DNA from: Anaerohalosphaeraceae bacterium
GTDB lineage: Bacteria; Planctomycetota; Phycisphaerae; Sedimentisphaerales; Anaerohalosphaeraceae
Reading direction: 5' to 3'
Assembly (NCBI GenBank): GCA_963675525.2
Contig: CAXXSL010000013.1
Coordinates: 541,524-605,523 of the forward strand
Length of the DNA stretch: 64,000 nucleotides
Below are positions 7,901 through 55,900 of this stretch, one piece after another. Every line of letters starts with the position of its first letter. Position 1 is the stretch's first letter. The position numbers are program-made.

Positions 7901-10900
7901 TGCTTTTCATCATCCAATCGAAAAGCTTCCTGGTAAAATCTCCTCACATTTTTTTCGGGTGAACCGTTCCGTCTTTACCCCCATTTCAATAACATGCAGT
8001 ATACCATTTTTTACGCAAAAAATCAATCGATCGGGCATGCTTTGACCGGTGCTGTGCGTCCTATAGAAACCACTTCCGGCAGTCACGCCGCAATGACTCT
8101 GCAGCATAACCCGATAATAAAAATCGTTCCTGCTTCAGAACACAATTTAGTACCGGCTCATCCGGTTATTGCGTCCGATAAAGGCATTGACAAAAAAATA
8201 GCGCAATGCGTCGATGGGGTGGTCATGAATGCCATCTTTTTTCGGCAGTTCCGATTGCACAACCGCCCCCGTTTCCGGATAGTGATAGCACTGCATCGCT
8301 TCGATCAGATGCTTACATCCCGGATCGATAACGAGCCGATGCGACCCGTCACCGGCACGCAGATGCGCGCGGATTTTTTCAATGCCTTCCAAAATCCGGC
8401 TGTGTTGATGTTTCACGCGAATCCCCGCCCTGGCTAATTCCTTGATCTCGCTGCTGCCGGAAACGCCGTCATGTCCCGCTCCGGCCGGGTCGCCGAAGGT
8501 CCCGGCCACCTGCGATTCAGCACAGGGTGTTCGAGCCTTCAACACAACGGCATGTTCGGCGATCCGCATTCGACGTTGAACATATTCATCGATCACCCGC
8601 ACCACGTCACCGTCAACCTGAATCCATAAACATACAAACGGATTCGTAAACCCAAAGTCCATCGCCCGGTATAGCGGCAGCGTCGGATCATAGACAACCG
8701 GCCCTACATGCACGTCCGGGTCAAACTCGGCAAACACCGCGTTTTCCAGATTCGGACGCAGGCACAGCATCTCGCTTTCAAACCCGGCCCGACTGCTGCG
8801 ACGCATCTGGGCGATGCAGTCGTCAATTTTCAAATAGCCTCTGGCCCGGCGTGCCTTGCCGCCGCAGTCGCTGTTCAACGGACACCGGCTGCAACTGCGA
8901 TCTTTGCCGCATCGCTCGATGACCTCCCACATGCACCACTGAAAGACCGGGATGCCGCTGTTCGCGGAGTCATCGATCAGCTTCTGCATCAGGCCGTACG
9001 GCCGGTGCATCGTGCTGAACATTTCCATCGCCGCCAGATGGCCGTCGGCGCTGCGGGTGACGAACTTGGCGGCATTGAAAATAGCTTCATCGAACAGCTC
9101 GATCTCGTCGCAGCGCAGCTTGTGAACATGCCGACCGCGCACGGCTCGGGCCGATTGCGCCAGGACCTGTACGGTTGTACCGTTTTGAAAACGGCAGGAT
9201 CCCTTCAGCATCTTACCGTCCAGGCGATCTTCAAATCCCCGCTCGACAAACTCGCACAGGTATTCATATATCCGGCTGGACTGGTCCAGCGACCCGGCCA
9301 GAACCCGCGTCTGGCATCGGGGCTTGAACAACCCTTCCAGCAGCGTCGTAACTGCCGCGAGTTGGGTTTTGCCGCCGCCCCGGTTGGCCCACACAATGCA
9401 GTCGCCGCTGGTTAATTTTTTCCTTTTATTGAATCCCCCCATTTCGCAGCTGTACGCATGCCACAAATAATCCATCGGCGAAGCATGATGCCCGCAAATA
9501 TGCCGGTCCGGCACAACAAAGTCGGCATGTTCTTTTAAATACACCTTCAGCTCGTAACGATTCCGCGGCACCGCATCGCGATCAATTTTCCCCGGTTTTT
9601 TACGATCTTCCTTTGTGGCTACTGTCTGTTCCATTGATATGCTCCTTCTCGAAATGGTGTTAGATGATGCACTTCAGTTCAGATGAAAACGTTATGGCGC
9701 AATTCGTCCGTCATCGCTTTAGCAAAGATGGAACCCTTGTGCATGAAGTGTCTGTCGATGCCGGGCCGTGCGCCCCGTGCCCAAGCGGGTAATGATAAGC
9801 CGCAACTACAATCTTGATTCAGCAGGACCGCAGGTAGTCGATGGCGTTGTCGATGAAATTGATGATTGCGCCCTTGGCGCCCCGGACCTCGTCATATTCT
9901 TTGAGTTGGCCCTTTGATTGGAGGGTATCGCGAACCAATTCGATCTCCTGTAATTCTTCCGCATCAATCCAAAGTCCTTCGCACGATTTGCACATCTCCA
10001 CCGTAACGTATGTTTGAGGATAGTTAAATTCAAACATCAGTTCCTGGCAGACCGGACAGACACGCAAAACCTGTTTGGCTTCGTCAGGCAGCGATAATTC
10101 TTTGATCGCCAACGGGCTGACTTTTTCAAACTCACCCTTTTCCAGCCAGAAACCTTTGCACTGTGTGCAATAGTTTATGGCGACACCGCCGCCTTCTTTG
10201 ACCGTGCCTTCTCTGAGTGGATGTGTTTTACATTTTGGACAGTACATTGTTCTTCTCCTACCAACTCCCCGTTGCACCGCCGCCGCCGGAAAAACCGCCG
10301 CCGAAACCGCCGCCGAAACCACCGACTCCGCCATCGCTTGAACCGGCCTCCGGCAAACTTTCGACAGTCTTTTTGGCCATCACGAATAACGCCAGAAGCA
10401 AGATGATGATAAAACCGGCGCAAATCCAGCCCCAGCCGCGCTTGCCGCTACGGAACAGGCTTATGGTAACCGGTATCAGGAAAATGATGAGCCCGACGAC
10501 AGCCAGCTTGACCCTGCCGGGAATCAAACGCATACGGCCGAACTCCAAAATCAGGGCGCGCGTGCCTTTGATGATACCTTTATCGTAACGGTTTTTTTTG
10601 AATTGCGGGATAATGACCTTTTGCATAATGCGATTAGCGTCACCGTCTCGCGAGCGTCCGTAATAAGCGCCCAGTTCGATCCGCGCCTTGCGGTCCTTAA
10701 CCGCCACCACAAACAGAACGCCGTCGTTTTTCGGCATGTTGCCGATGCCGTATGCATCGAACAGGCCCGTGGCAAATGTTTCGATGCTGCTGTTGGCCGT
10801 GCCGGGGTAGTCATGAATCGAATCGATGGTCACCACCGCCATTTCGAATCCGTTTTCTTTTTCGCAGGTATACAGCCAGCTCTCGAGTTCTTCTTCCTGT

Positions 10901-52900: not shown

Positions 52901-55900
52901 AACCACACCCCTGACGCAGCCGGCAAACCCAACCGGCCCGCACAAAAACTATTCGAGTCCATCCAAAAACAATTGGCCGAAACAGACTTTTAACTTAAAG
53001 AGATGTTTTCGCCAATGGTTTTGGATTGATCCGCCGGAGTTTTTGCTGTGCCAGTGCCTCTTTGAGCCAGGCATTGATCCTTGTGCCGTAGGTGTAATCG
53101 TCCAGCTCCAGCAGATGCTCGGCATCCAGCGGTCCTACGCCGCCGATCACCTCGCCAAACGGCGTGCTTTCCACGGCGTAGATGCAGCCGTTCCCGACAT
53201 GTTGCCAAAATCCTTTAACGCGACCCATAATCAATCCCTTCACTTCAACAGAGCCTCTACTAAAGTCTGGCAAATAAATACTGCCGGGGCAAATTATAAA
53301 AATATAAAGTCGCCTTTGGCGGATGTTTAAACAGATCACCTCGGCTTCGCTCGGGATGACGGCCCCCCTGTGATAATGACAGGGCATATTTGATCATTCG
53401 CTAACGTATTATCCGATCTTTTCGATCGCCGTGGCGTCCAGTATCCGCAACCCCATCAGCGACCGGTAGTTCCGTCCGCTGTTGAGATACTGCATCAGTT
53501 CGCGGTAAAGATCTGTATCCATGAATCGGACCAGCGGCTGGGTCACCTGGGCAAAGCACCGCAAGGCGGCCCTGGCCTGCTTATCCCAAAAACGACCGTA
53601 CACATCCCAGTCGCTATCGGAGATGGTCCGCCGACAGTCGGCACTGCCGCAGGAGCATTCCAGTGGTTCCGGCAGGTTAAAGATTCCGTACTCGTCGGTG
53701 ATCTGCTCGCCGGCAGCAATATCCCGCACCGCGATCTCAAAACCGTAACCGGTGCTGATGGTGTTCGGGTCACAGCGGTGATTGACATACTTGGCGATAT
53801 CCCAACTTACAATGCGGCAGCCGCGTTCATCAATATAGGAAAACCAGTTGACCACCGTCTGGTATTGCGGATCCATGCCGGCAAACTGCTCGGGCGTGAT
53901 CTCGATCTCCAGCGGGTCCTTGACATAAACGATCGTCCCTTTCGGGATCGGCCGTAGTGCAAACACACCATTACCAATCGTTTCATTGACTTTTCGTAAC
54001 TCTGTGTCGGGGTGGATCATAACATACCTCACTTCCTTCGGTCGTGTCATGGCAGGTCAAGAACACCCTGTGGCAGCGCAACTATTGCGCATCGGGGGCA
54101 GAGAATGATTACTCACAGGGGGATACCTGACGTGACGGAGAATTCAGCCCGGGGCCGAATCTCGCAAGTGCCGCCATGCTCCTTAAAACATTGACGAACG
54201 CTGTCATCCGTATATTCCACCGCCGGAACCCGGCTCCGGGGTCGGTACGAATCAGCGCGCATTATACAAAAATCCCACCGGAGTCAAACACGAATTTTTG
54301 ACACTTTGTAAAAAAAAATAATGGGTACTTTATGAACTTGTCAAATATACAGCAGCTTACACTCACATCTGGTGGGCATAGCCCACCCTACTGGTTACTG
54401 TTCAAAGCGTCGCCCAGCGGGTCGGGGAAGGTGACCTCTACCTGACGGTCGGCCGGGGAGGTCGGGTAAACGCCGGAGGTGTCCAACATCTCCAGTACCA
54501 ATGAAACGATCTGTTCGATGCCCCTGCCGTAGGTCAACTGTTTGCGGTAGGTCTTGCTCAGCATTCCCATGAACGTCATTTTGAGCGCTACGGCACTGGA
54601 CAGATTGCCCAGCTTGCTTTTGAGTACTCCCGCCACCACGGGCGTGACGCCGCTGACCTTATCCAACGCCTCGCGCACCTCGGCAATGTGAAGGTTCTCG
54701 CTGGGGCTGTCGCCGTCGCCGCCAAATGCCTCGATGGTCGCATCCGGATTATCCGTACACCACATCCGTCCCGGGGAAACGGGTTTGTCGCCGATGGCCT
54801 CGATACCCTTGGCCAGGTACATCTTGAACGACTGGAGGGTGATCCGGCTGGCCCGGTCGCTTAATCGCGTATTCAACTCATCCTGCAAACTCATCAATTG
54901 CTCAACATCACTCAGCCCTTCATAAAAATACGGCTGGGAGAGATTTTGAATATGTACCACCGGCACACGGCCCAGCGGATTGAGGCCCTCTTCGACCAGT
55001 ACGCCCTCCTCGTAGCGCTGCCATGCATCGGCGGCGAGAATCTCAGTAACGGCGACGGTCTTTCGCTGCCGGCCGCTTTGGGCGCCGCCCAGCAACCGGG
55101 TCAAAAAGCGGCTCTCGTCGGCCACCTCATTGGTGACCTGATAAAAGTGCTGCACGTAGGCGCGAATCGTTTTGTAGTCATGGTCATCCAGGACGGGCAG
55201 TGCCCGGGGCGCTTCGATGAGTTCGAGGGTGATGCCTGCTGCCGCACGTAACACAGAATCAAACGAGGTGATTGTTGAGGTGACAGGTGACATGCTTAAA
55301 GAGGTGCCTTGAGAAAAACGCTGCGACAGTTGCGGGACCGTGCGAACGATACAATCGACAAATCCGTAGACGCTGCCGAGCACCGCCATGTCCTGAAAGA
55401 AGACCGCCCCGCCATTGCGATCGAACACCGCCTTTAAAACAGACTCAATGTCTCGGCGACGATCCGCATCGGCGGCTTTACTGGCGATCCTAACCGGTTG
55501 ACCAAACAAAAAATCGACCATGGCGTTAATGCGCCAGGCGATATCATTCTCGATGACGACTTCCTTGCGCTGGATGTCGCTGACGTTCTTGCCGAAGGCA
55601 GCGCTGTCGTCGGCGGAATAGACCTTGCCTGTGATCCGCGCGGGCAGGCCCGTCTCCTGAGCCTGAACGTAATTGCGGCGGGTTTCCTCGAGCGAACCTT
55701 GTCCGGCCGGAATCGTCTCCAACATGGGGTTTTGATAGTACTCCCACAGTCGCTCAAAATGCCGGCTGCTGAGCGGCCATTGATTTTCGATCAGCCACTC
55801 AACAAATGACTCCTGCAAAGACGGGTCCTTGAAAATTCCAAAATCCAATGCCATGGTTTTTGCTCCTTCCTTTTGAAATTTGATATTGTAAATTGGATAT

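Follow-up and report, generated by a model that had tools for sequence, protein, structure and literature searches.

A Putative Host-Regulated, GTA-like Particle of Independent Origin in Phycisphaerae, with a Tail-less Variant

The phage-type genes dispersed through the 64-kb stretch of DNA analysed here (the window) probably belong to a host-regulated, GTA-like particle of independent origin, of which this lineage would carry a tail-less variant. For a system known here from genes alone, we put the probability of this reading at about 0.6. It proposes that an ancestor of Phycisphaerae domesticated an ancient temperate phage and kept it as two host operons making a small DNA-filled particle. 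The system spans more than half of the sampled class, mostly uncultured sediment and marine bacteria, and its ancestral phage group can be identified. It suggests a kind of gene-carrying particle made by bacteria and not described so far, with the head kept and the tail dropped both here and in many relatives. To our knowledge, few independent GTA families are known, and the literature searched, which lay largely outside subscription journals, held no description of this system or of a GTA family for Planctomycetota.

Particle Genes in the Window

Fifty-seven ORFs of the window were scanned against Pfam and PHROGs families; one is an IS200 transposase. Coordinates in this section are window positions, and the genes located here lie on the minus strand. 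The six phage-type ORFs of the preliminary description are real, each an open frame at its reported place, and, as it had also stated, none of the 57 ORFs matches integrase, replication, or lysis genes. Its gene set was incomplete, having missed a lipoprotein, a regulator, a repressor, a small terminase candidate, and an ABC-ATPase/GNAT/ParB trio. Among listed sequencing runs, two from one study contain this DNA and none is an RNA run.

The large terminase, TerL (8147..9634), a DNA-packaging ATPase/nuclease with a Cys-rich insert, matches phrog_2 (1.7e-20) and PF17289, Terminase_6C. In an alignment of 18 TerLs, R85/G87/K89/T90, D176/E177, and D326/D382/D475, which we take to be the Walker A, Walker B, and nuclease residues, are invariant, as are C242, C248, C251, C257, and C291. 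The portal (54388..55854) is SPP1 gp6-like (SPP1_portal PF05133, 1e-12; phrog_104, 3.2e-18; phrog_64); it is present in 34 of 40 fetched loci and in most lies directly upstream of scaffold and capsid genes. Between portal and capsid there is a scaffold gene and no protease. The coiled-coil scaffolding protein (48694..49116) was identified with a profile of the ORF found at this position in 23 of 40 loci (1.1e-22), and a homologue matches head scaffolding phrog_2303 (3.6e-4).

The major capsid protein (MCP; 47326..48480) has the HK97 fold and belongs to SU10_MCP/DUF5309 (PF17236, 2.7e-87; phrog_1328, 2e-84). PF17236 is the sole Pfam family it matches, and the whole genome holds one such match, in agreement with the single copy claimed before. 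The closest solved relatives are the capsids of Pseudomonas phage Pa223 (1e-36), Vibrio phage VP1, and SU10; identity to the closest GenBank phage is 33%. A beta domain is inserted at about residues 60-140. The structure model of MCP is poor (pLDDT 61) and was used solely beside sequence matches. The 219-aa ORF at 44050..44709 is, by its AlphaFold model (pLDDT 92), a head-tail adaptor: a helical bundle of the Mu gp36/HK97 gp6 type, interrupted at residues 25-111 by an insertion rich in beta structure. In structure it comes closest to subunits of phage necks (5ydn, Z 9.1, rmsd 3.5, 102 residues aligned; 9khx, Z 8.4); a Foldseek search with the model gave no match at E<=0.001.

Two further proteins are candidates for a role in the envelope or in release. 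Hydropathy gives the 87-aa protein at 43757..44020 one hydrophobic helix followed by a coiled-coil-like stretch, which suggests a holin-like or inner-spanin-like protein; it matches no named family, and its homologues sit in the operon of four relatives (G136, G104, G154, and G111). The lipoprotein at 35293..35883 (profile match 1.2e-61), with an internal Gly-rich hydrophobic segment, may be a spanin-like envelope protein. It is the final gene of the structural operon in three relatives (G104, G041, and G111) and is present in 56 of 81 genomes of the order and in 20 of 20 of the family, with G26-C27 invariant in 20 sequences. An atlas cluster resembling it is 81% viral. A holin/spanin lysis cassette would pair a membrane protein with a lipoprotein, and with an endolysin, where the late operon ends. 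Compared with such cassettes, the two proteins fit in topology and operon position and gave no family match; no endolysin was seen within the operons.

Two Proposed Operons and a Putative Phage-like Switch

Where are the remaining parts? Outside the window, the same genome carries a candidate small terminase (TerS), the ABC-ATPase/GNAT/ParB trio, a dual-HTH regulator, and a CI-like repressor. Here the system occupies four or more separate sites, spread over two contigs (C13 at 421 kb, 550-597 kb, and 664-668 kb; also C20), with no integrase or primase beside them. A replication, integration, or excision module is also absent from the conserved neighbours of 40 MCP loci and 23 packaging loci. 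The system is not an intact prophage or a capsid-forming satellite, either of which would be contiguous and carry integrase and replication genes. In four genomes the two operons adjoin. Their compact form came first, and the dispersed arrangement in this window derives from it.

Operon 1 would comprise the regulator, with its dual sigma-70-region-4 HTH, the ABC-type ATPase, GNAT, ParB-like, small terminase, and TerL genes, with the CI/LexA-like repressor head-to-head with it. Operon 2 would comprise portal, scaffold, capsid, adaptor, an optional tail-like module, and small membrane proteins. The repressor is found in 129 of 201 genomes; by hand count, the two genes are arranged head-to-head in about 54 of the 113 genomes that have the regulator. 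Repressor and regulator are linked and co-occur, and they may be wired together as a host-held switch; a promoter scan gave no usable motif common to the genes. The GDSM and TIFKR stretches of the repressor are presumably S24 catalytic motifs.

The preliminary description found no small terminase, which does not hold across the class, where a candidate TerS forms part of the system. Its profile matches 21 of 41 genomes of the family and misses the complete genome G136, which counts against our reading. Profiles of TerS, the hub-like protein, and a 121-aa protein gave no convincing solved relative. A second TerS-like ORF (C1:65787-66173) was not counted, because it has a primase-like ORF in its neighbourhood, a setting expected of a mobile element of its own.

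Distribution and Inheritance

Across 201 Phycisphaerae genomes, MCP occurs in 117, with family tallies equal to those reported earlier; by hand count it is full-length in 106 and in pieces in 11. TerL is found in 138 at E<=1e-3, or in 125 after removal of 13 weak matches (E of 1e-21 or worse), and the regulator in 113. A strong TerL accompanies MCP in 113 of the 117 MCP genomes and the regulator in 107; all three are present in 106 of the 201 and none in 71. The complete genome G007, which has repressor, regulator, TerS, and TerL and no MCP match, counts against our reading. The system is dispensable, another point against, since 84 genomes lack MCP and four show deletions or an inversion.

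A joint MCP and TerL tree of 30 genomes has 15 of 27 splits in common with RpoB and 12 not, and none of its 15 strong splits conflicts with the 10 of RpoB. The distances correlate with those of RpoB (r 0.73); the permutation test is inflated by related genomes. Taken alone, the MCP tree conflicts with RpoB in one of seven strong splits, and MCP conflicts with TerL in two of 12. Conservation of MCP comes close to that of RpoB: identities are 88% for MCP versus 91% for RpoB within the genus, and 49-63% versus 64-71% across orders. Over the first 300 columns of an MCP DNA alignment of three genomes, a hand count gave 48 variable columns at third, 21 at first, and 12 at second codon positions. The proposal of domestication and vertical inheritance is supported by co-occurrence and by the comparison with RpoB, which indicate that the particle genes came from a phage, are a fixed part of the chromosome, and pass down vertically.

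The Tail-like Module and Its Loss

The statement that there is no conserved tail proved wrong for the class. A tail-like module, whose genes probably have a tail role to judge from their position, follows the adaptor in many families and is kept in 47 of the 117 capsid genomes; its variable tip genes include DUF2793 and LamG. About 70 of the 117 lack the hub-like gene, with head and TerL conserved; tail-less carriers include the single-contig genomes G136, G041, G111, G118, G047, and G061, and likewise G595, G577, and G528. The module has been lost in several separate families, and tail-less lineages keep the membrane proteins and, in those examined, the adaptor. Three profiles found no tail-like genes in this genome, nor was a stopper or nozzle gene found in it; no tape-measure gene was recognised in the system. 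Since head, motor, switch, and membrane proteins outlast the module, a tail-less head is the predicted product in this lineage. We know of no way in which tail-less heads inject DNA, which counts against the GTA-like reading.

Exact MCP sequences are filed under cultured species of both forms: Anaerohalosphaera lusitana has a locus with the module, and Limihaloglobus sulfuriphilus and Sedimentisphaera salicampi have loci without it. Two questions therefore become testable: why are GTA-like genes kept, and does a packaging head need a tail?

How might such a particle be made? The repressor would keep the activator off, with few cells induced. In these cells scaffold, portal, and capsid would assemble without a protease, and the terminase would package pieces of the host chromosome, because no phage genome is left to replicate. 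The adaptor would then cap the portal and the membrane proteins would release the particles. It is doubtful that the tail-less form is itself a working DNA-transfer particle of a new type, one that arose repeatedly from a tailed form within one class. Such a terminase-filled capsid would exit the envelope through its own membrane proteins, possibly membrane-wrapped and without lysis, and enter recipients without a tail. The hexagonal particles of roughly 30 nm reported for a cultured Phycisphaerae strain (PMC10945688) could be of this kind. The phage record of that work, OP650935, is partial; the 27 of its 54 listed ORFs that were scanned gave replication, metabolic, and one lysis-annotated match and no head or packaging match. 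Being partial, this record speaks neither for nor against a genuine phage origin of these particles.

Related Phages and Mobile Elements

Five prophage-like clusters in four to five genomes share the TerL family at 33-39% identity. Like the host operons, Phycisphaerae temperate phages have a TerS-like ORF, ABC/GNAT/ParB genes, the adaptor, and the downstream gene order. They differ in being contiguous and sporadic, in their portal (phrog_145) and capsid (phrog_247), and in having replication genes nearby; the prophage-like clusters also carry extra genes between the tube-like and downstream genes. Prophage-like elements also contain genes for a repressor, a ParB-methylase, and DnaB. Because related prophages share TerL and downstream genes, an ancestral phage group is indicated. 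On one phage contig in IMG/VR, a copy of this MCP with 65% identity is surrounded by replication genes. Host operons of this kind can end up filed as viruses in catalogues, which calls for caution.

In five genomes the capsid gene is split by integrating elements. The sigK skin element and SPbeta in spsM are gene-interrupting serine-recombinase elements, and they resemble the present case: a large serine recombinase element interrupts a conserved gene, a short core is shared, and precise excision would therefore rejoin the frame. The target here is by contrast a capsid gene, and reversibility in this sense holds for every site-specific insertion.

Alternative Explanations

Could the head and motor have been domesticated for something other than gene transfer? 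Induced cells might cut and encapsulate their own or invading DNA, whether as an altruistic death, to sequester or store DNA, or to make decoy particles. We consider this family of roles a minority possibility. The tail would be dispensable because nothing is injected, which fits its loss in several families, single-contig genomes included, and the retention of head, TerL, and membrane proteins. The 47 genomes with a full module and variable tip genes suit delivery to cells instead, and the adaptor retained in tail-less lineages argues in the same direction.

Improbable, in our judgement, is a role in anti-phage interference, with host capsid, scaffold, and terminase subunits poisoning or shrinking the virions of related phages in the manner of satellites. 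Related temperate phages do infect the same class, the switch is phage-like, the IMG/VR contig shows a similar capsid in a phage, and mobile elements repeatedly enter the MCP gene; however, interference would not need a complete assembly line whose motor, portal, and release candidates are all intact, and the capsid and portal families of the related prophages differ. A decaying prophage remnant, or repeated independent insertions without current function, is very improbable and largely refuted. It would suit the patchy distribution, the dispersal seen in this genome, and the copies that are broken in some genomes, but the single, mostly full-length copy, RpoB-like conservation, tree agreement, third-position excess, and joint retention of parts on different contigs speak against it.

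Comparison with Known Systems

GTAs are defined by particle genes of phage origin that have become a fixed part of the chromosome and pass down vertically, with no linked replication, integration, or excision module; by dedicated, host-held regulation; and by a tailed particle that delivers DNA to recipient cells, its cargo being mostly random pieces of host DNA, each too short to hold the genes of the particle. The system described here likewise lacks a linked replication, integration, or excision module. BaGTA, VSH-1, Dd1, and VTA resemble it in that each was domesticated independently from a tailed phage and has its gene clusters split; their descriptions set them apart, with other hosts and phage ancestors, and all are described as tailed. 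Encapsulins are also host-encoded HK97-fold shells without a tail. They are, however, shell genes without portal and terminase; the system here is not an encapsulin, as portal, terminase, scaffold, and adaptor are kept and the closest solved relatives of the capsid are phage capsids.

The GTAs of Rhodobacter capsulatus (RcGTA) and Caulobacter crescentus (CcGTA) likewise have chromosomal, vertically inherited head and packaging genes in several loci and no replication genes. The system here does not belong to the RcGTA family, with its PF05065-type capsid and maturation protease: the capsid is PF17236, a scaffold replaces the protease, no tape-measure gene is recognised, and the tail-like module is optional. 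Putative GTAs are listed under PF05065 in PMC8346489. The control logic would be shared. In the Caulobacter GTA, the LexA/cI-like RogA acts over GafYZ in a two-tier control (PMC9632790), and here too a LexA/cI-like repressor would stand above a dedicated activator. Inspection by eye suggests that the repressor here retains the S24 catalytic residues, which are missing from RogA. The switch would represent convergence on a Caulobacter-like repressor/activator logic.

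Head Genes and the Structural Operon

The window spans G000:C13:541524-605523. A preliminary description named six ORFs in it: the large terminase (TerL), portal, scaffold-like protein, SU10-family capsid protein (MCP), a 219-aa protein and a small ORF. All are present with open frames, and their family matches were reproduced. The capsid family, PF17236, has one match in the whole genome, and the ATPase and nuclease residues of TerL are invariant in an alignment of 18 sequences. What is the 219-aa protein? Because its predicted fold is confident (pLDDT 92) and its closest structural resemblance is to neck and adaptor subunits of phages (Mu neck: Z 9.1, rmsd 3.5, 102 residues aligned), it is, by modelling, a head-tail adaptor.

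Clustering the ORFs of 40 fetched capsid loci gave the order of the structural operon: portal, scaffold, capsid, adaptor, an unnamed block found in many families (genes of about 121, 245, 260-500, 230-1100 and 580 aa), and small membrane proteins. In the order Sedimentisphaerales its final genes encode an 87-aa membrane protein and a lipoprotein. The latter, in the last-gene slot at window 35293-35883, had been overlooked, leaving the preliminary gene list incomplete. Of 81 genomes of the order, 56 have it, including 20/20 in the family of the genome under study and 1/21 in family f25; in other orders this slot is filled by another small membrane protein and another lipoprotein. From position and topology only, such proteins are read as candidate release proteins, holin- or spanin-like.

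The scaffold/capsid intergenic region (window 48480-48694) holds an AT-rich near-palindromic repeat and a short GC hairpin; such repeats may mark entry points of unrelated genes into the operon. Elsewhere in the window, a minus-strand run of secreted-looking ORFs with N-terminal hydrophobic stretches (15808-21604) has matches to T6SS_HCP (Hcp-like, 1.8e-17) and to the C-terminal domain of T4 gp5 (1.1e-11); no connection between this run and the capsid system was seen. An IS200-like transposase (Y1_Tnp) lies at 59116-59550, also on the minus strand.

A Packaging and Control Operon

A second conserved operon surrounds TerL in the 23 loci examined. It comprises a regulator gene, an ABC-type ATPase gene, genes for GNAT and ParB-like proteins, a small HTH/helical ORF occupying the small-terminase (TerS) position, and TerL. 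The regulator, with two sigma-70 region-4-like HTH domains, is present at 18 of these loci, and an XRE plus peptidase-S24 repressor lies head-to-head with the operon at 10. The structural and TerL operons adjoin in four genomes (G081, G009, G194 and G096). In the genome under study, C13:663717-668322 holds the regulator, ATPase, GNAT and ParB genes and C13:421427-422215 the repressor; the TerS candidate stands by itself at C20:40638-41207. This candidate, putative on sequence grounds, is the weakest assignment of the set; it is found in 21/41 own-family genomes and has no match in the complete genome G136. Another TerS-like ORF (G000:C1:65787-66173; locus L143, 5788-6174) has a primase-like ORF nearby and perhaps belongs to a phage satellite.

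Distribution and Inheritance

Among 201 genomes of the class, the capsid is found in 117, strong TerL in 125 (leaving out 13 weak rows), the regulator in 113 and the repressor in 129, head-to-head in about 54 genomes by hand count. Capsid, strong TerL and regulator occur together in 106/201, and 71/201 have none of the three. Twelve genomes have TerL without capsid; among the loci fetched from these, five are prophage-like clusters. G007, by contrast, is a complete genome in which the control operon is present and the capsid search found nothing.

Trees were built from 30 chosen genomes, each with all three markers. The combined MCP and TerL tree shares 15/27 splits with RpoB, with 0/15 strong splits in conflict; MCP alone shows one conflict with RpoB in 7 strong splits, and MCP versus TerL two in 12. 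Capsid conservation nearly equals that of RpoB. In this genome rpoB is split over two frames of 974 and 359 aa (L189, G000:C19:10681-14398), probably an assembly error.

A scan of a genome collection gave at least 489 relatives, the best 80 all from Planctomycetota. Beyond the class, matches came from 12 of about 275 genomes of the phylum, and a single family accounts for six of these; portal, a scaffold-sized ORF and capsid keep their order there, with other genes downstream. Examples of such clusters are L334, L337 and L338; family f67 has six genomes with one. Among GenBank phages, the closest capsid is 33% identical and the closest TerL 25%.

Loss of the Tail-Like Module

Family matches in the middle block are few (DUF2793 and LamG). 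The label "tail-like" reflects its place after the adaptor and the matching gene order in related prophages. The 580-aa gene has matches in 65/201 class genomes and the 121-aa gene in 67/201; neither these nor the 245-aa gene were found in this genome. Counting strong matches only (E below 1e-89, plus one cut short where its contig stops; 16 weak rows excluded), the 580-aa gene is present in 47 of the 117 capsid genomes and missing from 70, although a few copies may be hidden in fragmented assemblies. Only 2/21 own-family relatives keep a strong copy, and family f15 retains just two short tube-like genes. Since the gene is absent even from single-contig genomes in several families, head and motor endure where the tail is largely or wholly gone, apparently through several separate losses.

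Split Capsid Genes

Capsid copies are in pieces in 11/117 genomes. A large serine recombinase lies at the break in G020, G015 and G117, and a 39-kb prophage in G129. In G534, from a separate family sample (capsid in 68/101), a recombinase 59% identical to that of G020 is inserted at the same codon, within an 11.5-kb satellite-like element (L373, 2988-14382) that also carries an AAA helicase-like gene, a Mu gpT-like capsid and a methylase. The junctions in G020, G015, G129 and G534 have short shared cores, and recombination between them would restore the frame. These insertions show that the capsid gene is a repeated integration target, dispensable to vegetative cells. Because G074, G089, G125 and G183 have deletions or an inversion, loss is ongoing. 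The G183 inversion (L060, 612-1799) disrupts both capsid and adaptor genes; in G123, of the same family, the adaptor is split near the same position.

Origin and Phage Relatives

Prophage-like clusters occur in G119 (two), G197, G167, G042 and G005. Their TerL is 33-39% identical, and they carry a TerS-like ORF, ABC/GNAT/ParB genes, an adaptor and the same downstream order; they differ in having other portal and capsid families and repressor or helicase genes nearby. They are the likely living relatives of the ancestor.

Two IMG/VR contigs also match. L221 (5970-7124) carries a 65%-identical capsid copy amid replication genes; no portal, scaffold or adaptor lies next to this copy, which is possibly a host capsid gene captured by a phage. 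L222 (8263-21152), catalogued as a virus, holds the domesticated operon and tail-like module, its portal frame shortened at the start. A different compact phage-like cluster (L131, L133, L134), with the same tail-like genes and another TerL, portal, protease and capsid, occurs in 5/11 f19 genomes and in f20, families without this system; it is possibly a second domestication.

A literature search, with subscription journals largely outside its reach, found no published description of this system, nor do the accessible parts of 10.1101/2022.02.18.481119, PMC8346489 and PMC12213060 contain one. What this analysis adds is the control operon in a genome with scattered parts, the recurrent loss of the tail, the prophage group of the ancestor and recombinase-split capsid genes.

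A Particle Like a Gene Transfer Agent?

A particle like a gene transfer agent (GTA) is the best reading, with a probability of roughly 0.6. A repressor-activator switch would control the particle genes, the scaffold would guide head assembly, and membrane proteins would release the particles; host DNA is the predicted cargo because there is no phage genome to pack. The tail-less state is the anomaly of this reading: either tail-less heads would get into recipients by some other route, or the system would serve something other than gene transfer. Among the non-GTA readings, a role other than transfer is unlikely though worth weighing, interference with related phages is less probable again, and a functionless remnant is the least plausible.

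A published lead is a cultured Phycisphaerae strain, for which the accessible text of PMC10945688 reports hexagonal particles of roughly 30 nm, released without lysis under nitrate or ammonium. In its deposited partial phage sequence, 27 scanned ORFs gave no head or packaging match.

How does the system compare with known GTAs? According to the accessible part of PMC9632790, the Caulobacter GTA has the same two-tier control logic as that predicted here; its structural genes are unrelated. On genomic criteria the Phycisphaerae system is GTA-like, and it falls outside the RcGTA family.
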